Below the pieces are notes generated by a model. That model worked only from the letters and a program-made list of their open reading frames with translations. It ran no database searches and was not told the origin of the DNA. DNA of 62,337 nucleotides, the filler included, from Globobulimina sp. (Eukaryota), in the NCBI GenBank assembly GCA_003354225.1. It is 22 parts of 22 records of this genome, joined end to end, with 100 filler letters (N's around TTAATTAATTAA, not from the genome) between each part and the next. Parts side by side here need not be neighbours in the genome. Positions count along the whole stretch, not along the records: positions 53,931 to 56,666 come from PIVH01005146.1; 21 more parts are not named here. One strand, given 5' to 3'. This document shows, piece by piece, positions 16,940 to 62,337 of the stretch. Each line of letters begins with the position of its first letter. The first letter of the stretch is position 1. Position numbers and translations under genes: made by a program.

Positions 16940-17123
16940 NNNNNNNNNNNNNNNNNNNNNNNNNNNNNNNNNNNNNNNNNNNNTTAATTAATTAANNNNN
17001 NNNNNNNNNNNNNNNNNNNNNNNNNNNNNNNNNNNNNNNGCGCATGCACAATCTTGCAATAATTTATTGGTGATCTGGATTTTCCACATCTTTTTCGACT
17101 GAACCAGATACCACTAAATCACA

Positions 17124-17900
17124 ATGGCAACCTCCAAATTGGACACCAGCAAATATCGCGCCAACCACAGTCCAGAGGAAGAGAAACTAATGGTGGCCTA
17201 TTTACAGATGAAAAAAGGAGAAAACATTAAGAGCAAAGCAACGCAAATCTCGTTATTATTGATGCAACAAAAAAAGAAATCTGTTTTTCTATTCTATGCA
17301 TTTATTTATCTAATGGTGTTATTGCCTTTGTTGTGGCAAATCTTTGTGAGTACAATCTCGTCGTTGGGTGGTCTGATTGTGGTAATTTGTGCGTATTTAC
17401 TCGCAGACTTAACCTCCGGATTAGTGCATATTTATTTAGATTACAGCGTGGTGCGTTTTGATGGAACCATGACAGATTTCAATCGAATGGGTTTTCAGGT
17501 TCATCATTTATATCCAAACCATCAATGGATGGTTCATGAAAATTATCAACCGGTTTACGAGACAGTCACTGTGTTTCCCACTGTAATCTTAATCAGTTTA
17601 TTGAATCGGTTTACATTAAATAATTTATTTATTTATTATTTTACATTTTTTTGTTTATGTTTTCAAGCCGCTCATTATTTTTCGCACGCCGTTACGCATC
17701 AAAAATATGTGCCAAAATTTGTTTTATTATTTCAAAGAATTGGCTTATTTATAAATCCCAAAGCTCATCAAAAACATCATCAAACATTTGATGTAAATTT
17801 CTGTATTTTAGCTGGTTTATTCGATCCTATCTTAAATAAACTTGTCAAGAATGAAAATCTATTAAAATCTTATGTGTCATTTATGGACAACATATTATGA
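17124..17900 (+). CDS. PEDS1: TMEM189/Kua/CarF/FAD4-family lipid desaturase (plasmanylethanolamine desaturase-like)
   Basis: His boxes ADLTSGLVHIYLD, FQVHHLYP, AAHYFSH and HQKHHQTFDVNFCILAG. Multiple TM segments. Confidence 0.85.
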   Translation: MATSKLDTSKYRANHSPEEEKLMVAYLQMKKGENIKSKATQISLLLMQQKKKSVFLFYAFIYLMVLLPLLWQIFVSTISSLGGLIVVICAYLLADLTSGLVHIYLDYSVVRFDGTMTDFNRMGFQVHHLYPNHQWMVHENYQPVYETVTVFPTVILISLLNRFTLNNLFIYYFTFFCLCFQAAHYFSHAVTHQKYVPKFVLLFQRIGLFINPKAHQKHHQTFDVNFCILAGLFDPILNKLVKNENLLKSYVSFMDNIL

Positions 17901-22717: not shown

Positions 22718-25456
22718 TTCTGCTAGTGTTAAGAATTTGCATCCTACCGTTTTTTGTATAATTCTTTTTACTATACCTATCAGTCTCTCGTAAAACCCTC
22801 CCATCCAAGGTGCTAATTCAGTTATAAATTTCCATTGTATGCCTTCTGTACGAGTATATTCTTTTGTATTTAGCCAAGTTAACTCTAATGATTTATCTGC
22901 TGCTTTAAATTGCTTTGCGTTATCTGATATAATCATTTTTGGTCTACCTCGACGTCCAATAAATCGTTTTAGTGCTGCAATAAACTCTTTAGTAGTCATG
23001 TCTGTTACTATTTCTAAATGTATTGCCCTTGTAGATGCACATGTGAATAAACAGACCCAAATTTTTTCGCTGTTTTTATGCCCTTTTACTTCAATCGGTC
23101 CCCAGTAGTCTATCCCGATGTATTCGAATGGTTTACTAGGACTAACTCTGAATTTTGGCCAAGGGGGTGCAGACGGAGGTTGATAAGTATTGTTCCAATA
23201 TCTTTTACATGTTCGACAGTTTTTTATCAGAGATTGTATCGGTGCACGACCTTGTGGAATCCAATACTCGTACCTTATTTGAGCTAATGTTTGTTTTACT
23301 CCTGCATGCATCAAACGTTCGTGACATTGTTTTATGACCAAATTTGTGAAATGACTGTGTCTGGGTAACAATTTGGGATGTTTTGTATCTCTTGGTAAAT
23401 CTGTATTTTGTAATCTACCCTTGCATCTAATTAAACCTTTTTCGTCCACATAAAGACCTAAATCCTTGACAAGTTGACCTGTTTCCTTTTTACGTAGAGA
23501 TGCTTTTATGTGTGCGAATTCTGTATCTTGAGCGTAAACTTCCCATACTTGCTTTGCCCAAATTAAATCATTGTCGTATGACGGCATTTGATCATTTTTG
23601 TATGCGGGTAAACCTTTTTTAAATTTAAAATAAATCATCCGAGCATCTGCTGTTACTCTAAGTAATTTATTCAATGACGAAAACCTTGTTATATCCATAC
23701 CTAATGGTGCTTCGATGCGTTTTGTTAATGCCAACATTGCCGTACTTGTGTGTGTATATTTTTCAATTTCTTGTTTCTCTTGAAACCATTCAGACTCTAC
23801 CTTATTTAACCATTTTGGACCGTTCCACCACAAAAGTTTGTCGAATTTTTCTTGTGGTTTTGTTGGAATGTCTGCTGGATTGTCCTTTGATGGCACATAC
23901 CGAAACTCTAAGCCTTCGACCTTTTTTATTAATTTTACTCTATTAGTTTCGAATATGGGCAAAACCTTTTCTGTATTAATCCATGCTAAGACACATTTTG
24001 AGTCTGACCAAAGTACTGTACGTGCGATGTTACACCGTAACTGTTCTCTTACAAATTCAATACATTTTGCACCTAATACTGCTCCCATTAATTCTAATCT
24101 TGGTATTGAAACTTGTTTTCCTTTATTATTAATGGATGCTAAGCGATTTTTGGCATAAATAAGTGTCGTGCTTGTTTTGTCATCCGTTATACGAAGGTAG
24201 ACAGCTGCCGCATATACTTTTTCTGATGCATCCGTGAAACAATGTAACTCTACATATTGTAACGCTGTTATTGGTCCGACGATTCGTGGCAATTTAATTG
24301 TAGGTACAATGTTTAGTATGTCCTTTAATTTTCCCCATTGCAACTTTATGTCCGAAGGTAATGCATCATCCCACTGTAACTGTTTTTGCCAAACTGTTTG
24401 TAACAATAATTTGCCTGCTGCAGTGTATGGATTGAATAATCCTAAGGGATCAAATAATTTTGCAATTGCCTTCGTCAAATTTCGTTTTGTATGTACTTCG
24501 ATTTCGTTTAATTTTGGGTCCACTAATGATATGAGATCGTTTTTTAAGTCCCATTTTATTCCCAAAACCTTTACTATTTCTCCTTTAGCTCTATCCTTTT
24601 CGGGTAAACTTTCAATGAATGCTTGTGAGTTTGAACTCCATTCTCGTAAATTCATCGATGCATCTTGAAACATACTTTTAGATATTTTGTAAAGTCGTAA
24701 CGCACTTTCTAAATTCGGTTCACTAACTACTACATTGTCGACATATAAATTTCTTGCTAATTTTGTTGCAATGTCTGAGTGAATAGTATTAGTGTATTGT
24801 TGTAAATGATGTCTAATTGTAGCCATCAATAAGAACGGACTGCAAGTTACTCCAAATCCTACACTTGTAAATCGATATATGACTAAATTGCCTTTATCTG
24901 TAATTGGATTGTTTATGTCGCGTATCCAAAGCAGTCTATTTACATCTCTATCTGTCGATGTGATAAGAATTTGTAAAAATGCTTTTTCTATATCTGCTGT
25001 GATACCGATTTTTTCTTTGCGTAATCTTAGCCATAAACCGACTATGTCTTCAAGACCCACCGGACCTCGATATAAAAGATCGTTTAGACTATTATCGTCT
25101 GTTTTTGATTTACTCGATGCATCGTAAACTACCCGAATTTTCGTTGTTGCTCTATCTGGTTTAATAACACAATGATGCGGTATGTAATATACTTTGTCAC
25201 TTGTTTGCATATCAGGTGTTACTTCCTCTATAATACCCAATTTTAAATGTTCTTGGAACACTTGATCATATTTTTCAATCATTCCTGGGGTTTTTGTCAG
25301 ATTTTTAATTAAGGAACGCAAACGTGTAAGTGCAACTCCGTAATTATCGTTTAATGGTGCACTCCTATCTTTATATGGATAATGCACTTCATACCTTTTT
25401 GCTTCTTCATTAAATTTAACTGTATCATTAAAATGTTTTTGTGCGATAAAGTCGTC
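22718..25456 (-). mobile_element. pol: BEL/Pao LTR retrotransposon pol fragment (RT - RNase H - integrase), open across the whole contig
   Basis: YYIPHHCVIK...TTKIRVVYDAS, ADIEKAFLQI, FGVTCSPF, NLYVDN, KVLGIKWD, FDPLGL, ELHCFTDASEKVYAAAVY, SIPRLELMGA, WSDSK, NPADIPTK, zinc finger H..HAG..CRTC, and integrase GIDYWGP / ISDNAKQF / ERLIG. Confidence 0.95.
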
Positions 25457-37814: not shown

Positions 37815-38237
37815 TTAGAACGTTGGTTGCAGCCGTAACACAAGTCATACTTTGTAATTTATGTATATATAAATATTTAGTCTCTTTTAGTTTTCTTATA
37901 TTTTATACCAATTATACCCTCCAAATTCACCCAATTACCCTCCATTTATACACTGCTTTTATTTTTGTAATTGATATTAATAAAGACAGAGACCATTCTA
38001 TTGTCCCGGATTCGCACTTTGAGAGTATATCTCAATGCGATCTGATAACCACCATAGAATACTCCACTTTAATTCAATCACTTTCCTTTTTTTATACAAT
38101 AATAAAATTGTTGCCACGGCAACTCAATTTAATTCAATTACAACCCGATTCCCTTATCAGTGTAACAAGAAAACTTGAAGCCCACTACAAACGCCACAAA
38201 AAATGCTCTCAAAAACGATACAAATATAAAATAAAAA

Positions 38238-39649
38238 ATGGTTAAATATAACATATTACAATATAATGTCAATGGGATAATCAGTCCCACAAAAATGTCA
38301 CAAGAAAATAAATGTAGAAAGATACATCAAATCATGATATCTAAACAAATTGACTGCCTCCTCCTTCAGGAATGGAGTGCCACCCTACGTTATGCAATAA
38401 ATCCAACAAATTCAAGTTATACGGACTCCAATAACCGAATACATTCACTTAAATTCCCTATAGAACTATTCCCAAAGTATAAAGTCCATTATACAGGAAC
38501 AGAAACAGCAATCCTGTATAGAGACTCACTGCTAGTCACCCCAATAAATTCTCCTCTAAATTACAACCATAATGATCGAACAAGAAATTGCCACATTTCC
38601 AGTATCATCATCCATAGTGGCGACCAAAACATAGGCATCCATTCCTTGTATAATTGTCCAAGAAACCCAAATATTGATCAACTGTTTAACTATCCAATGA
38701 CTGTAGATAAGAATATAATAGCTGGCGATTTTAATGTGCCACACATAATTTGGGGCAGCGATCGATCAACAGCTGAATCTGAAAATTTTGTTAATGGATT
38801 GGAATTCCTTGACATGCAAATTCTAAATATAACCAATCCATCCTATACTCATATACATAAATCGTACCATAAAAAATCCTCAATAGATCTTACATTGATA
38901 TCCAATAATTTGAAACATACTAAATGGAATATACTGCATTCTTTATATGACCCAAACTGCTCCGACCACGTTCCCATCGCTACCACCTTTGAAGTGGAGA
39001 ACGTTTTTGGTTTCAGCGAAACAAAAAAAACGTGGAATCTATCGAATTCAAGAAAATGGAGCAAATTTACAGAGGAATTGGCAATAAACATAAAAGAAAC
39101 ACAATTTGATCATAATCCAAATTTATACACAGAACAACTAACGTATCTCATAATTTACACGGCTGAGAAATCGATTGGATACAAACATTACTACCGTGGC
39201 CATAAACCATGGTGGAACAATAAAATAAAAAGATTAAAGAAACGCTGCAAACGGCTCCGTCGAAGAATACAGCGATTAAAGCGGAAAGCAAAACGTTTCT
39301 CCACTGATTTCCATATATATCCCAAATATAAACGATTAAAACATGAATTAAATGTGCTGCAATCAAAGAAATATAAATCAATCCAAAGAGCCAAACATGC
39401 CCATTATAAGAAAATAAATAAATATATCCAAACTTGCAAAGATTATGGTCGCCGTTTCTGGCGTACAATATCGAATAATAAAACAAATGACATAAACACA
39501 AATAATATCCCTCCATTGAACTATAAAAATAATAAAAATATAATTGACCCGGTAAAGCAGGCTAAAGCTCTCCAAGAGGCCATGACCAGACCACCAAAAC
39601 CAAAAACCAGTCCGTTGCATAATGAATGGCACAAATATGTAAATAAATT
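38238..39649 (+). CDS. LINE ORF2: apurinic/apyrimidinic-type endonuclease plus linker; RT lies beyond the contig end
   Basis: ILQYNVNGI, LLLQEW, IAGDFNVPH..WG, SSIDLTLIS, SDHVPI and KPWWN. Confidence 0.92.
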
Positions 39650-53930: not shown

Positions 53931-56666
53931 TCAGCCAAAATTCCAAATGTTTCTAATAAGAAATCACGAATATACGCAATTGCAAATGTCAAATTAAAGC
54001 CTGCTTTGCCGGACTCTTCGCCCCCTACGATTCCCTTATTTTGTTTAATTAATTTATTTAGAATATTTTGTTGAGTTTTTATTTCATTTCTTGTTCCTTC
54101 ATAAACAATTGTCGCCGCACAAATATTATCCAAATTGAATCCTTTCCATTTGGTTAAATATAATTTTGATAAAAATGATTTGTAATTATGTGATTTGCTG
54201 CCACTTGTTTTCAGAGTTTGTGATAGTTTAAATTGTGTATTATCTACCAAGCGTAATGATGCTGGACGACAATTTGTAGCGATATTTTTTACCATTTTCA
54301 TCATATTTATGCCATCCCTCCAGGCGGGAAATACCACGGAATCATACGCTACGATATCAGGCAGTTTATGCAATCGAATGACAGCCGATATAATAATACC
54401 TAAACTCCCTTCAGATCCATAAAATGGAGCCAAATAATTTGTGCCCGCAGCGACCCGGCCATACAAACCCATATTGCGATTGAGTAAACCTAACGATGTT
54501 ATCACCTCAAAGTCGATCACAATGTCTTCAATATTGCCATATTTACTTCGTTTCATACCAGAGGCAAAGGTTGCTATCCATCCGCCTAATGTTGAAAACT
54601 CATAAGAGTCCGGATAATGACCAGAGGTAAAACCAAATGAATTCAATTCTTTCTCTAACTTTTTGCCAGTTATACCAGCCATAATATTCGCAGTCTGATT
54701 CTCTCGGTTGATCCAAATTACTTTATTCATTAAACTCATATCGACCGATATTATTCTCCTTTTTTCCACTTTTTTATTTGGACACCACAGGGCATGCGTT
54801 ACGTTGGTACCTCCTCCATACGGTATTATGCACAGACCATTGCCGAATCTGTGACAATTATTCACCAATGCAATCAATTCAGTTTTGTCCTGTGGATAGA
54901 CCACAATATCTGGGATGCGGAAATCTAGATTTTTAAGTCGCAAATGTAACATATCAGAGACTGTGTGACCGGTTCCATGCATATAACGGTTCGCTATATC
55001 TTTTGTTACATACTTTGAACCAAATAATTTATGCAAAAAAGTCATTAATTCGTCGTCATTATCATTATCATTAATATTAATATTGTTATTCAGACTGATA
55101 CAGACAGGGAAATAGCGTTTTTTTCTTAATAATGGAATCTTTGATAAATCCGATAAAAATGAGATTGATTTATCAAAGTATTTATCACTTATTTCGTATC
55201 TTGACCCTTTAAAGAATAATTTATCAGATTTTAAACAAAAATAACAATCTCTGTAACCCCAATATCCTAAATTCTCATCACCGACAGATATCCTTTGACT
55301 TACTAAGCCATCGGAATCATTTGTGTTAAATTTGAGTAATGCCATTGATTTGTTTAAGTAATTAAAAGATCGATACTCTGCGATAATGTATTTGATCAAA
55401 CTGATAAACTCTTTGTAATCCGCCTCATTCTCCGCATCATCGATATCCTCCGCCTCATCCTCATATTTCATGTCTGATTCCAATTCCATTATATTACCAT
55501 TTGTTAGCCAATATTTTGTATCAGAATCAAAATAATTGCAAATATAATGTGCAAATTGTAATGTTAACATATAAATTTCTTTATTATTTGTGGGTATATG
55601 GCTAATCGCCGTGGGGTGCACTTTACAGCCTTTCTTACTTAAAAAGCTTTCAACGTTCAATTTAACCGATTTGTTATTTATATAGGGATAAATATGATAT
55701 TTGGTAATATTTGTCATTTCCATTTGTTTTAATTGTACTTTGTTCACTAAATTATTAAAAAATTGTTTATTATAATTTTGTTTTCTGACTGGAATAATAT
55801 CACCAATTTCTATATTAATATCGCCCAAAAATACCTTATTTTTGATCACAACGTCATAAAACCAGCCAAACAATTTAATCACACTAAAATCGGTTTTTTC
55901 ACCATCTAATTCTTTATAAAACGAGTCTTGTTCCGGTACGCGTTCATAATTGATAGCAATTGGAACAATATTTAAGTCCATTTCTTGCGCCAATACAGAT
56001 AGAGCGCCATGATGTGGCTTTAAAAATTGTCGATTCCGCGAGCGGGACCCTTCAATGAATAATTGATACACGTTATTTTTATCTTTGTTTTGTTTAATTT
56101 TTTTGGATAAAAAGCCATTTTTTATGTTATTCGAGCCACTATCAATAAATATGGTGTTCATCATACTCATACACATGGCGATGAGGGGCGATTGCTTGAA
56201 CTTACTCGTTGCAAATGACAATGGCATGGATAGGCCAAACAGCTGGTATTTGACGCATATCTTACAAATCAGTAAAAAATCATAAAAAGAGCGATGTGTG
56301 GGCAATAGTACAATATTCTTTTTATTTGATAATTTCCTTAAATTATCCAATGACTTATGCCCAATAATGACTTTATTGCAGGTCTTGCTGAGAATATAAG
56401 TAAAACAGGTATTTGTAATCGAAATCATTAAATTAAAATCATATTTAAATAATGGTATGGAAGCGGTCAAATCATTGATTGGTATCTTCGCTAAGTCGCA
56501 GGAGCTCTGCGCTACGATGGTAACATACTTCTTTCCATCAAACGAAATATCCGGTGTTATACCATCAGATACTTGGAAGTTGGTAGAGGTAAAATGTGCA
56601 AACTGATAGATAACGCCACTACGAACCACTACATGTTCAACTTTCGGCGGGGCAAACATTTCATTC
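53931..56666 (-). CDS. AGPS: Fusion of a PlsB/GNPAT-type acyltransferase with alkyl-dihydroxyacetonephosphate synthase (AGPS); possible fatty acyl-CoA reductase tail at the N-terminus; both ends partial
   Basis: One uninterrupted frame. Acyltransferase motifs LLPTHRSFYDFL (HxxxxD), FIEGSRSR and IVPIAINYERVPE. AGPS motifs WGYRD, HGTGHT, RIPDIVVYP, IIPYGGGTNV, GHYPDSYEFSTLGGWIAT.ASGMKRSKYGNIED, GSEGSLGII, PASLRLVDNTQF and LTFAIAYIRDF. Confidence 0.92.
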
Positions 56667-57042
56667 NNNNNNNNNNNNNNNNNNNNNNNNNNNNNNNNNN
56701 NNNNNNNNNNTTAATTAATTAANNNNNNNNNNNNNNNNNNNNNNNNNNNNNNNNNNNNNNNNNNNNCATAATCCGAAAACTATGCCAAGTTACAGTGAAA
56801 TGCATATATATTCTGATCACAATGTCTGGTTTTGCATGGTTGATCACAATTTGTATAGAGGGTATTTAGATGCCCCCATTTCAGTTTGTGTGTCTATACC
56901 CCACTACTTCTCTCTCCACATTTGCCAATCGGATTAACAAGGTTGTATTACACATAGCATAGATGTAGGAAACAAGCTAGCTGTACTCTGCACAATAGAA
57001 AGCCATACACACATATCTATTACATATATATTGGATAATAAA

Positions 57043-57949: not shown

Positions 57950-59470
57950 CTGGCCTACTTTTAGATGGTGGTGTGGGTAGACCGGCGACGCTTACATCGT
58001 CATAGTAATACTCTATTAGCGTCATCATTAGCTGACCTACTTTTAGATAGGGGGTGAAATTGGTGTCGGCCGCCATTTATTCAGCGTCGGACATTGTTTA
58101 TTCAATGTCGTTACCCTAGCCCAAAGGGATAAGGTCCTACCTGAACATCAAGCGGTTACTGTAACCACCCTGTATCGAATTCAAGTGGTAATCGAAATTT
58201 GGCACACCGCCAAAAATATATCGTGGCTACCCTGTCATCGGAACACCCTCCGTTTCCATAGCAACCAGTGTCTATTGTATACCAATAATGTTGTGACATT
58301 ATCACCTCTTTTTGGGATGGGCGTCGTTTTTCAACAAATAAATTTTCCACGTTCGACAAATAAAATCATCTATTTTCGCGTCGTGCGTTGTTTATATCGC
58401 GCCCGGCACCGTTTTAATAGCGTCAGACACCACCCCGTGACCTATTTTTAGACGGCGCAAAAAATTATTCGCAAATAATCTTTATCAATATATACAGACA
58501 TATTGTGACGTCCTTGTTATAGAACGGACGTCGACAGTTCCCAGTAAAACCGTCACATTGTCCTTGCGACAAGAAGAGGGAGTGATTAGACTCGACCGAT
58601 ATCAGATTACTGGGATACATATAAGCAAAATAAAACTCATTAATATAGAGAGTCGCGAATTTTGAAACATAAACCGTACGGGTCACACTCAAATATATTA
58701 AAAATCTATAAAAATAAATATTTCTGCGTTTAACAAATAAATCGTTTCTTTTTCGCGTCGGGTGCCGTTTAAATCGTGTCGTCGACATTTAATAGGAGTC
58801 GCTTACCATAACTACAGACATTGGGCCCATTCACTGGCTGGCCTATTTTAGACCATACACACGCTATTGACAGTGTCATCATTAGCTGACCTACTTTTAG
58901 ATAGGGGTAAACTGACGACGCTCACGTCATCACAATAATACTCTATTGACGATAGATATACCAATAATCGATAATTAATAATTTATGTTTTAAAATAAAT
59001 ATCAAAATCGATAAAATAGGTGAAAAAACAATAAATATCTCGTTGGGCGTCGTTTATTCGGCGTCGGGCGCCGATTAAATCGCGTCCGATACCGTACCCC
59101 TTCGATCGGAGGTCTATACCCGAACATATATATCAAAAATAGCTGAAAAATCGACAAATATATCGTCGGGCGTCGTTTATTCGGCGTCGGGCGCCGTTTA
59201 TTTACTATCAGATACCGTACCCCGAAGGGGTAAGGTATAACACGTTGTAGCATAGTAAAAGGGCTTTTGGTTAGAATAAATCGTCGGGCGCCGTTTATTC
59301 GGCGCCGGGCGCCGATTAAATCGCGTTCGTTACAGTACCCCGAAGGGGTAAGGTCATACCTGCGCATCCTGGGCGCGAAAATTGAATTTTCCCACTTTTT
59401 TGATAGGTGGCGCGTCGATTAGATAATGATGCGTCGATTAGATAATGCATCACGCGTCGATTATAACCCC
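57950..59470. repeat. CpG-rich complex repeat region with ~120-bp units and dispersed partial copies
   Basis: CGTCGGGCG(T/C)CGTTTATTCGGCG(T/C)CGGGCGCCG at about 59041, 59164 and 59282, with degenerate copies near 58065, 58375 and 58753. CTGACCTACTTTTAGATAGGGG at about 58032 and 58886. Confidence 0.8.
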
Positions 59471-59922
59471 CCACGTTGTGGCATAGCAGTTGGACTCGAC
59501 GGNNNNNNNNNNNNNNNNNNNNNNNNNNNNNNNNNNNNNNNNNNNNTTAATTAATTAANNNNNNNNNNNNNNNNNNNNNNNNNNNNNNNNNNNNNNNNNN
59601 NNCCTGTGTGTTACTTTTGGATGTTTATTTGTTTTATTTTAAGGAAATTGAATGTTGGTCGTTGGGATGTTTGATGAGTTGGCAAATCTATAATATTAAT
59701 TAATTTATCTAAGTGAGTGTGAGGACTGAGTGTCCAAAATTAATTTATTTATCCGTTATTTTTCTTTTCCGTGAATGTTCTTTGTGATTTTAGCTTTGTG
59801 GTTTTTTTTTCTTTTTTGTGTTGTGTACACACCATTGCTAAACATTGTGTTTTTTCACATGTTTACGTTAAATTAATCTAATCCAATCTAACTTAAATGG
59901 AGTAAATATGAAATACACACAG

Positions 59923-61335
59923 TTATTCAGTATCATCGTCAAGATTGGGTATTTTAACTCTGATTGGCTCATTTTCAACAAAAGATTTATTTTGTTTTTG
60001 TTTTTGTGCTAAATATGATGTGGATTTACGCCTTGATGCGCTTTTTGGTGACGTAATCATATCAAATCTTTCCTGACTTCCGCATGCTCGCAATCGTTTA
60101 TTAACATCGTTAGATTTCCTTCTTGATAGTAACGTATTAAATCCACCACCATGTTTTGGCTTTTTTGAAGGTGATGGTGATTTTACAGGCAATGGTTGGA
60201 ACTTTGATGGTCCACGACCGCATGCAATACAATTACCACTTTGTGTACCAAATGACGGTGCTTGTGGTTGTGAACCACCATTATTTGCTGATTGTATTAA
60301 TTCCATTATTTCTTGACGAAAATTTGCTTGTTGATCAAATATTTGTTGCGTTATTTCCTGTTTTATACTATCAACATCGACTGGATTCTTTATCATTGAT
60401 TCTAACTCATTAAATTTTTCATCAACAGACAATTTAAATGTATCTTTTTCTGATTTCATATTTTCAATATCTTGATTAATTTCATTTTGTTGGTTTAATT
60501 GTGTATCAATGTTTGTAGAAATTAATTGTATATTTTCATTTATTTTTGCTGCAAAATTATTGTATATATTGTCTATAAATTGTTGATATTTATTTGTGTC
60601 TAATTTATGTTTTAAATCTTCGATATCTGCTTTTTGTGATAATTCTTTATTTGTTTCAAATTGAAATAGTTGTTGTTTTTCATCAAATTGACTGATTTTA
60701 TTTGTCGTTTCATTTAAACAATTTTCTATTTTTGTATCTAATTCTAATGCTTTATGATGCAATATTTCTGTTAATTGATTGAGGTCATCTTTAAATTTAT
60801 TATCTTGTTCTTGTATTATTTCTTTATTTTCTTCACATCGCATTGATAAACTACGGATTTCATCATTTGTTTCTTGTTGTAAATTTTCAAAATCTTCTTT
60901 TAAAGTGTCGCAATTTTCTAATGATTTACTTACTTTATTTGATATTGCTTCTACAGCGGATAAACATTCTTTCTTTAATAGATCGCATTGATTATTGGTC
61001 ATATCTTTCATTTTATGTAATTTATTATCAACTTCTGTGGATAGCTCAGACAAACATTTTTTCATTTTCTTCATTTCTTTATTTAATGTATCATTTAGTT
61101 GTACACACTTTTCATTACATAAATTTAATTCATTTTTTAAATTGGATATATGTTGGAGTGAGTTTTCAATTTTTTCTTCAATATCTCGTGATTTCTCCAT
61201 TTCATCTTTAAATGCTTCAATAATTCCATAGAAGCCAACTGATAACATCTCAATCGAACCAACAGCACCATGTTGAAAATTCTTCAATGCTGGTTCTACT
61301 TTCACATTTTGTAATTTGTTGAATGCCTCGCTCAT
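59923..61335 (-). CDS. Long coiled-coil protein with a C-terminal CIACGR motif and basic tail
   Basis: 470-aa heptad-rich E/K/Q/N ORF containing LSQKADIEDL..KLD, then CIACGR and HGGGF. Confidence 0.75.
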   Translation of the reverse strand: MSEAFNKLQNVKVEPALKNFQHGAVGSIEMLSVGFYGIIEAFKDEMEKSRDIEEKIENSLQHISNLKNELNLCNEKCVQLNDTLNKEMKKMKKCLSELSTEVDNKLHKMKDMTNNQCDLLKKECLSAVEAISNKVSKSLENCDTLKEDFENLQQETNDEIRSLSMRCEENKEIIQEQDNKFKDDLNQLTEILHHKALELDTKIENCLNETTNKISQFDEKQQLFQFETNKELSQKADIEDLKHKLDTNKYQQFIDNIYNNFAAKINENIQLISTNIDTQLNQQNEINQDIENMKSEKDTFKLSVDEKFNELESMIKNPVDVDSIKQEITQQIFDQQANFRQEIMELIQSANNGGSQPQAPSFGTQSGNCIACGRGPSKFQPLPVKSPSPSKKPKHGGGFNTLLSRRKSNDVNKRLRACGSQERFDMITSPKSASRRKSTSYLAQKQKQNKSFVENEPIRVKIPNLDDDTE

Positions 61336-61410
61336 TTTTTACCAAAGATACACAAATTGTATTTTAAGAGTGTTTTCAACTGAATTCAGTCCAAACTTAA
61401 AAAAAAAAAA

Positions 61411-62337
61411 ATGAACAATGGCGCAGAGCACCAACGAGGTGGTTTATCTCGATTTTGCACAGAAACCACAGAATGGAATGCTCTTATCTGTTCAATCGCA
61501 TTTTTTTTAATATTTTCAGCTTTTGGAACTGTACAGGTATATATATATACACTAAACAACCACACCCACACTAACAACATATATACATAATTAAACAATA
61601 TGAGAAAGAATTACGCAACATCTTCCCATGGAGATGACGGTGCCATATCATTAGCAATCTTGTACATAGTGTTAACATTCAGCAACATCATCGTCCCCTT
61701 ACTAGCCTCTTACATCTCGCCTCGTTGGGCCATGTTTTTAGGGTCAGCCACCTATGCCATCTATGTCGGTGCCAACATCCATGAAGTGAGATACATATTA
61801 TTTGCAGCCGGAGCCTTAGAAGGGTTTGGCGCCGCATTATTATGGGTGGCCCAGGGCTCCTTCATTACGAAATGTTCGCATGAATACGAGTCCAAACACG
61901 AATTACAAATCAATTCACAGTTAGGATATTACAACGGCTTATTTTGGGCTTGGATGGTCTTAAACCAATTCGTCGGCAACTCCCTCGCCGCCGCCTTATT
62001 TTATTTTGACATCCCTACCACCACCGTCTATATCGTGTTCACCACCATTAACATCTTTGGTGTGTGTGTTTTTTTATTAATTAAACCCTTCGACTCGCAA
62101 TCACAGCACATCGAGTCGCAAAGCTACAGAAACGACAGCATACAATCTCCGGCGTCCACGTCTGCGCTCACCAGCAAAAGTCACGAAGGCGACTATCATA
62201 AAGGACAAGTACAGAGTTCCATCATTGACGAAAATGATATGAGCGCTTATAAATACAATCAAAGTCAGAAAAACAAAAGTAATAAGCCGACCTTATCCGA
62301 GATAGAAACGATACCTTTCATTGACAATAAAGTGATA
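61411..62337 (+). CDS. UNC-93/MFSD11-like MFS membrane protein; exon 1 61411-61536, exon 2 from 61609, 3' partial
   Basis: Not in the ORF track. Manual translation gives SIAFFLIFSAFGTVQ|NYATS..GAISLAILY, PRWAMFLGSATYAIYVGAN, GFGAALLWVAQGSFITKCS and GYYNGLFWA. The 72-nt GT-AG intron is in phase 0. Confidence 0.9.

Follow-up and report, generated by a model that had tools for sequence, protein, structure and literature searches.

The synthesis of ether lipids, plasmalogens among them, requires three committed enzymes. In animals the acyltransferase GNPAT and the alkyl-dihydroxyacetone phosphate (alkyl-DHAP) synthase AGPS are separate proteins, which reportedly form a complex with each other. 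A fusion of fatty acyl-CoA reductase (FAR) with GNPAT, the bifunctional protein FARAT, is described from Tetrahymena thermophila, Dictyostelium discoideum, Myxococcus (MXAN_1675) and many protists in a 2026 survey, whose text places it, within Diaphoretickes, only in ciliates (PMC13012113). In print, then, FAR fused to GNPAT is known and AGPS is treated as a separate protein. Here we describe an open reading frame (ORF) of the foraminifer Globobulimina sp. (assembly GCA_003354225.1, contig PIVH01005146.1) in which a GPAT/GNPAT-type acyltransferase and AGPS are fused in a single frame, preceded by a segment resembling the end of a FAR fold, and we weigh whether the remainder of the reductase is encoded upstream in the same gene. 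The window analysed is a stretch of 62,337 nucleotides made up of 22 unrelated contigs, each of 2735–2740 bp, separated by N44-TTAATTAATTAA-N44 spacers; as these contigs are unrelated and joined end to end, genes lying across a spacer are not genomic neighbours, and all positions given below count along the whole window.

The organization of the frame is like that of FARAT in having a FAR tail followed by a GNPAT-type acyltransferase, with the tail motif in the matching position and the HxxxxD and EGxRSR motifs shared. It differs in that FARAT, as the survey presents it, consists of FAR and GNPAT only (PMC13012113), whereas the acyltransferase of the window runs on into AGPS; in addition, the contig holds the FAR tail only, with the Rossmann part lying off it, and an arginine of acyltransferase block II is replaced by serine. 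The frame occupies 911 codons on the minus strand (53933–56665), comprising the FAR tail, the acyltransferase and AGPS, and contains no stop codon under the standard code. It fills the contig (53931–56666) and reaches both ends of it without a stop, as the initial annotation had stated for the upstream edge; the translation does start NEMFAPPKVEHVVVRSGVIYQFAHFTSTNFQVSDGITPDISFDGKKYVTIV, as quoted there. The gene has no intron over these 2.7 kb. A ciliate origin with genetic code 6 was considered and dropped, because neither TAA nor TAG occurs in the frame when it is read with the standard code. Purifying selection acts on the frame: of the 38 differences listed against contigs from a related strain (62 further differences exist), 33 are synonymous third-position changes, and both indels are of 6 nt.

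Two of the three parts are readily assigned. Residues 468–911 (53933–55264, minus strand) form an incomplete AGPS: residues 468–907 align with residues 95–522 of guinea-pig AGPS (4bby_A) in a search of solved structures, with an E value of 1.7e-82, much better than for any other flavoenzyme (5.2e-20 for D-lactate dehydrogenase), and Pfam places PF01565 (FAD_binding_4) at residues 585–726 (E 9.6e-28) and PF02913 (FAD-oxidase_C) at 773–874. Both the FAD-binding PCMH domain and AGPS-specific sequence are therefore present. The contig end cuts the domain ~135 residues short of its expected C-terminus, where the guinea-pig enzyme has residue 522, and contigs from two other runs, X6 and X8, extend it in frame beyond 53937, reading ..ESFETFIP (30 letters). 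In the guinea-pig enzyme, the C-terminal catalytic loop reportedly consists of a His-His-His loop and the catalytic Tyr; the corresponding stretch of the foraminiferal protein would fall beyond the contig. Within the N-terminal part of the AGPS domain, the translation contains a low-complexity insert, NNNININDNDNDD (55052–55090, minus strand), which is a local trouble spot for assembly in runs X1 and X5.

Residues 62–446 (55328–56482, minus strand) adopt the glycerolipid acyltransferase fold of the GPAT/GNPAT type, as indicated by PF01553 at residues 108–238 (E 8.3e-15) and by an AlphaFold model of residues 1–470, with a mean predicted local distance difference test score (pLDDT) of 78.7, which matches human GPAT1 (8e4y) with a Z score of 23.4 over 370 aligned residues (model range 54–446). 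With the Pfam, 4bby_A and GPAT1 matches all falling within one frame, the acyltransferase and AGPS are joined beyond doubt. Blocks I, III and IV of the acyltransferase are intact: block I reads HRSFYD (the HxxxxD catalytic motif, residues 124–129; 56279–56296, minus strand), block III FIEGSRSR (EGxRSR; 56036–56059, minus strand), and block IV retains its proline in VPIAINYE.

Block II (IFIDSGS; 56132–56152, minus strand) is altered. In PlsB and GPAT, the block II arginine binds the phosphate of the substrate. This residue, the Arg of the pattern xFxxxRG, is kept in all 43 aligned relatives from outside the foraminifera, where the block reads xFxxxRx, but in both foraminiferal proteins it is a serine: FIDSGS, with Ser176, in the window and FIDSRS in Bolivina, so that the window protein departs from the pattern. 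This substitution suggests that the foraminiferal acyltransferase may bind DHAP, or its substrate in general, in a different way, and GNPAT activity would not be assured for a protein lacking the arginine, which weighs to that extent against assigning this activity to it.

The segment in front of the acyltransferase is the one on which the question of a reductase turns. The initial annotation had likened the first residues of the frame to the C-terminal domain of fatty acyl-CoA reductases, and had noted that they lie where FAR lies in FARAT proteins; both observations hold, although not by way of the Pfam family itself, as Pfam Sterile (PF03015) gave no match in the first 100 residues of the frame, even at E values up to 10. 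In a MAFFT alignment, query residues ~17–48 (GVIYQFAHFTSTNFQVSDGITPDISFDGKKY) align with a conserved block of 26 relatives, of the form DLPxLFxxFxxxxFxFxSxLxAPxxFDGxRY, which stands directly N-terminal of the acyltransferase in every aligned FAR-acyltransferase (FAR-AT) and FAR-AT-AGPS protein. A custom hidden Markov model (HMM) built from the FAR-tail region of 24 non-foraminiferal FAR-AT relatives gave 19.3 bits over query residues 21–54 (E 2e-4) and 19.2 bits for the Bolivina orthologue; by comparison, the best scores among composition-matched shuffles were 12.5 bits for the query and 10.7 bits for Bolivina, none of the 2000 shuffles of either sequence reaching the real score. Among the proteins scanned with PF03015, four of 11 (four of the eight FARATs) gave matches, all of them sub-threshold (E 4.4e-4 to 0.13, profile positions 2–48), and these end on the tail motif when counted on the alignment. 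The first part of the Sterile subdomain falls off the contig, while its second half is present as judged by the custom profile and the fold mapping described below.

In order to place the segment within a reductase structure, we used a FARAT relative (P0013), the model of which, built with 48 sequences, had a pLDDT of 92.4 and a predicted template modelling score (pTM) of 0.90. Its residues 1–411 superpose on the rice Defective Pollen Wall FAR (7eoz_B) with a Z score of 39.3 and an rmsd of 3.0 Å over 400 residues, and most of the extended short-chain dehydrogenase/reductase matches listed for the model end at ~406–415. Query residues 18–61 map onto P0013 residues 367–411 in two independent alignments, and the phmmer alignment with the same protein begins at query residue 22. 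Since residues 1–411 of P0013 superpose on a solved FAR and the query segment maps onto their end, residues ~18–61 (56483–56614, minus strand; motif QFAHFTSTNFQV...P.ISFDGKKY, then a helix) are predicted to form the closing strand and helices of the FAR fold, an integral part of the reductase rather than a linker. By way of P0013 they correspond to the last elements of the rice enzyme, which is a stand-alone FAR, whereas the window holds just the equivalent of its C-terminal end. We also considered whether the first 60 residues might belong to the acyltransferase fold, and dropped this, because acyltransferase structures align only from residues 54–77 on; the smaller ones do so only from model residues 75–77.

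The residues preceding this segment are less well defined. Residues 1–17 (NEMFAPPKVEHVVVRSG; 56615–56665, minus strand) show little conservation; they would represent either the genuine start of the protein or, within the C-terminal subdomain of FAR, a loop followed by a short helix. The contig end near 56666 may carry low-coverage errors. At position 56625 the window reads A where the contigs of all four runs compared read C, which changes Val14 to Gly. X1 differs from the window at three positions in the final 170 nt of this contig, and at no position in its three remaining long pieces (records 1, 4 and 6).

A phmmer search with residues 1–480 against 1.84 billion representative sequences gave 1033 matches at E values of 0.001 or below. 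The best (P0006) is a transcriptome-derived protein of 260 amino acids from the foraminifer Bolivina argentea (EukProt EP01084 P057818), with 73% identity and an E value of 2.1e-115, which in itself assigns the source organism to the foraminifera, and the second (P0007) is a fragment of 121 amino acids from an ENA contig. This fragment, which represents a second, foraminifer-like orthologue, has as its first residue a conserved internal Met (query position ~50) and departs from the query after MCMSMM, as if introns flanked the exon. The matches that follow are at most 37% identical, and most are FAR-acyltransferase proteins; among full-length proteins, the acyltransferase part is closest to FAR-AT-AGPS proteins, at 29–33% identity. 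A word-based search with residues 1–480 (candidates of 501–1595 amino acids) returned four distant FAR-AT proteins, and one with a 262-amino-acid query (candidates of 144–459 amino acids) returned P0006 only.

Natural FAR-AT-AGPS polypeptides therefore exist among these nearest full-length relatives, and the reading of the initial annotation, that of a trifunctional FAR-GNPAT-AGPS protein, gains from this as well as from the FAR-fold tail and its FARAT-like position; the part that stays conditional is the reductase domain upstream. Among 18 AT-AGPS relatives examined with Pfam, NAD_binding_4 lies upstream in 15, a cut NAD_binding_4 is present in one, and two are N-terminally truncated fragments, so that none of the 18 is a complete AT-AGPS protein without FAR; in several of those bearing NAD_binding_4, this domain is itself preceded by ACBP and a DegT-type aminotransferase. 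These FAR-AT-AGPS and ACBP-aminotransferase-FAR-AT-AGPS proteins (1700–2700 amino acids; P0008, P0010, P0011 and others) share the AT-AGPS junction and the tail motif with the window. The window protein differs from them in its very long branch and in a possible start codon inside the FAR fold, and any ACBP, aminotransferase and Rossmann regions would lie beyond the contig end. When a quick maximum-likelihood tree was computed for the acyltransferase domain (60 rows), the foraminiferal pair fell within a clade of 30 rows that holds the fused and the long FAR-AT proteins (Shimodaira–Hasegawa-like approximate likelihood ratio test values of 86 and 90, not starred), apart from the FARATs of 800–1100 amino acids and from the stand-alone acyltransferases. 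The foraminiferal branch is, however, very long, at 2.13 changes per column, and for this reason the placement is tentative. The contig probably represents a divergent foraminiferal variant of the FAR-AT-AGPS fusion family, possibly with an unusual N-terminus.

On balance, we consider it somewhat probable that the rest of FAR, its Rossmann part, is encoded upstream in the same gene. The contig would then be an internal fragment of a foraminiferal FAR-acyltransferase-AGPS fusion gene, the missing upstream part being an NAD_binding_4 domain of the same polypeptide. In such a protein FAR would convert acyl-CoA to fatty alcohol, the GNPAT-type acyltransferase would make acyl-DHAP, and AGPS would exchange the acyl group for the fatty alcohol to give alkyl-DHAP and with it the ether bond; as the domains would be tethered, both substrates of AGPS might be handed over locally between them. 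The upstream FAR, the three enzyme activities and the channelling are all inferred, the activities from the likeness of the domains to FARAT and to the enzymes of the pathway in animals. There is room for the missing domain, since two contigs of other runs extend far enough upstream: X5 record 15 (3304 nt; nearly identical to the window, with four differences in 920) runs 2384 nt past the contig edge, and X6 record 18 (3317 nt; ~94.5% identical, with 38 differences in 691, and possibly RNA) runs 2626 nt past it at similar depth. Moreover, the hydrophobic signature is conserved in two genera, which would be hard to explain for an orphan fold end with no reductase to close.

Several observations nevertheless weigh against an upstream continuation and in favour of a protein that begins at the contig edge. 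The Bolivina protein, the one close orthologue to cover this end of the frame, begins MNEIFAPK, its Met standing one residue before the NEMFAPPK of the window. Ahead of the first complete codon a single base remains (56666, minus strand), a G, which fits the third base of ATG, or that of any codon with a final G. X8 record 22 (possibly RNA) stops 18 nt beyond the edge, its depth falling from 49.7 to 9.7 towards the 5′ end, and the X1 contig stops 24 nt beyond it; several assemblies thus end near one point, as they might at a transcript start. Residues 1–20 are also much less conserved, with seven of 21 identical to the Bolivina protein compared with 72% overall. Finally, on another contig of the window only 75 nt (61336–61410) separate the start codons of two divergent genes, which makes short leaders, and merged transcripts of neighbouring genes, plausible and so weakens the argument from the X6 contig, which could represent a neighbouring gene or genomic DNA; the RNA label of runs X6–X8 is itself a guess. 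The initial annotation had named a nearby start codon, with no FAR domain upstream of it, as the finding that would speak against its reading, and the Bolivina Met at this very position together with the leftover G goes part of the way towards it. However, TransDecoder assigns a Met start when a stop precedes it in the same frame, or as a result of refining the starts of 5′-partial ORFs, and can trim such ORFs to an internal Met, so that the Bolivina Met is suggestive rather than proof. The methods of the source study state that the Bolivina data were processed with this program. Searches for the upstream sequence itself were negative: metagenome contigs searched with the 262-amino-acid query and with the alignment of relatives held no relative; genome contigs searched with the same alignment and with an exact 39-nt pattern gave no match; a search for longer proteins with an 80-amino-acid query gave no match, but missed the Bolivina protein too and so carries no information; and NAD_binding_4 was found in none of the 64 other ORFs of at least 110 amino acids in the window.

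If the protein does begin at an ATG ending in 56666, the FAR tail could still be functional. FAR would in that case be a separate protein, encoded perhaps directly upstream and lacking its last ~60 residues, and the tail would complete the reductase in trans and so dock it onto the AT-AGPS protein. We regard this as the foremost of the alternatives, although an unlikely one. The Met of Bolivina at the exact position, the leftover G and the end of the X8 contig all agree with it; the conservation of the tail core residues between the two foraminiferal genera and the FARATs suggests that the tail would still pack against a reductase, and the 2626 nt that the X6 contig carries upstream at similar depth would fit an adjoining FAR gene. 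Against this, a fission inside the fold is seen in none of the 18 fused relatives, and we know of no precedent for one in the FAR-AT-AGPS family; no foraminiferal FAR sequence was found; and, besides the trimming to which 5′-partial ORFs are open, gene callers do place starts at an internal Met in proteins of this family, P0007 and P0035 being examples. The molecular arrangement that such a split would imply, in which a detachable FAR end carried by the AT-AGPS protein completes a tail-less FAR, so that the three enzymes are assembled by fold complementation rather than by a covalent link, is in our estimation rather improbable.

It is more doubtful still that the tail is vestigial, FAR having been lost or moved so that a bifunctional GNPAT-AGPS begins at the contig edge with the tail as a mere N-terminal extension of its acyltransferase. 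The same start-codon evidence, including the ends of both the X8 and the X1 contigs, would suit this explanation equally, as would the modelling of helix 44–60 beside the acyltransferase at moderate confidence (pLDDT 74–81) and the signs that this lineage remodels the protein freely, namely its long branch and the loss of the block II arginine. The signature F.HF.S.NF...P.I.FDG.KY is, however, kept across the two genera and in comparison with distant FARATs, which would be unexpected for a useless remnant; residues 1–33 have no confident structure when modelled without the FAR domain (pLDDT below 50); and the stand-alone acyltransferases of the family start after the segment, with 77–94 residues before HxxxxD compared with 123 in the window protein. 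A chance likeness, in which residues 1–61 would be an unrelated leader with a short hydrophobic motif, would accord with the lack of a Pfam Sterile match and with a protein-atlas feature search of residues 1–100 that gave no usable match, but is scarcely credible given the shuffle controls passed by both foraminiferal sequences independently, the collinear position directly before the acyltransferase in 26 aligned relatives and the phmmer alignment with P0013 from query residue 22. A FAR domain encoded upstream in the same gene remains the reading that we prefer.

The comparison with the mammalian peroxisomal enzymes and with the published record can now be drawn. The same chemistry would be expected of the window protein as of mammalian AGPS (4bby, 2uuu) and GNPAT; the difference is that these are separate proteins in animals and are covalently joined in the window. 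Full-text literature searches found no published description of a GNPAT-AGPS or FAR-GNPAT-AGPS fusion and no paper on foraminiferal ether-lipid enzymes, and papers on foraminiferal metabolism, including a preprint, contained none of the ether-lipid terms looked for. The main text of the 2026 survey does not mention Rhizaria, foraminifera or diatoms, and foraminifera and Bolivina are absent from the 12 of its 15 supplementary files that were searched, in which Rhizaria are represented by Bigelowiella and Plasmodiophora entries only; its supplementary listing gives the AGPS of Phaeodactylum as a protein of 554 amino acids (PMC13012113).

Elsewhere in the window, the contig at 17040–19778 contains a complete ORF of 258 amino acids (17124–17900, plus strand) matching Lipid_desat (PF10520, E 9e-18). 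Its match to the CarF/PEDS1 plasmanylethanolamine desaturase model NF045946 is weak (E 1e-3, far below the cut-off), and the protein could be FAD4-like or PEDS1-like as judged from these profiles. As PEDS1 is not reported in Diaphoretickes in the text of the survey (PMC13012113), the identity of this ORF bears on the question of foraminiferal plasmalogens. The divergent genes that flank 61336–61410 encode a coiled-coil protein (59923–61335, minus strand) and an UNC-93-like protein (from 61411, plus strand), the latter with a short GT..AG intron near 61536–61606, identified by eye. Other contigs hold a Pao/BEL-type pol (Peptidase_A17, RVT_1 and integrase; 22718–25456, minus strand), which fills its contig; a retroelement ORF with an endonuclease of the endonuclease-reverse-transcriptase type (38235–39647, plus strand); and a frame of 912 codons, also filling its contig (28397–31132, minus strand), which combines an XK-related (scramblase-type) membrane domain with an EF-hand and ankyrin repeats. 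At 58300–59480, on the contig at 56767–59502, a GC-rich motif (..GGCGTCGTTTATTCGGCGTCGGGCGCCG..) recurs several times, by eye, in alternation with AT-rich stretches.

A foraminifer that carries a GNPAT-type acyltransferase and AGPS in one frame, with a piece of FAR kept in front of them, links Rhizaria to the FAR-AT-AGPS megaenzymes. With the block II arginine gone, the way in which the foraminiferal acyltransferase binds DHAP becomes a question in its own right. Were the gene to begin at the edge of the contig, a single fold would be divided between two proteins, which is seldom seen. If, on the other hand, the whole gene is trifunctional, then fatty alcohol, acyl-DHAP and the ether bond would all come from one polypeptide, and such a protein would allow substrate channelling to be tested in a natural system and would give ether-lipid engineering a compact part.

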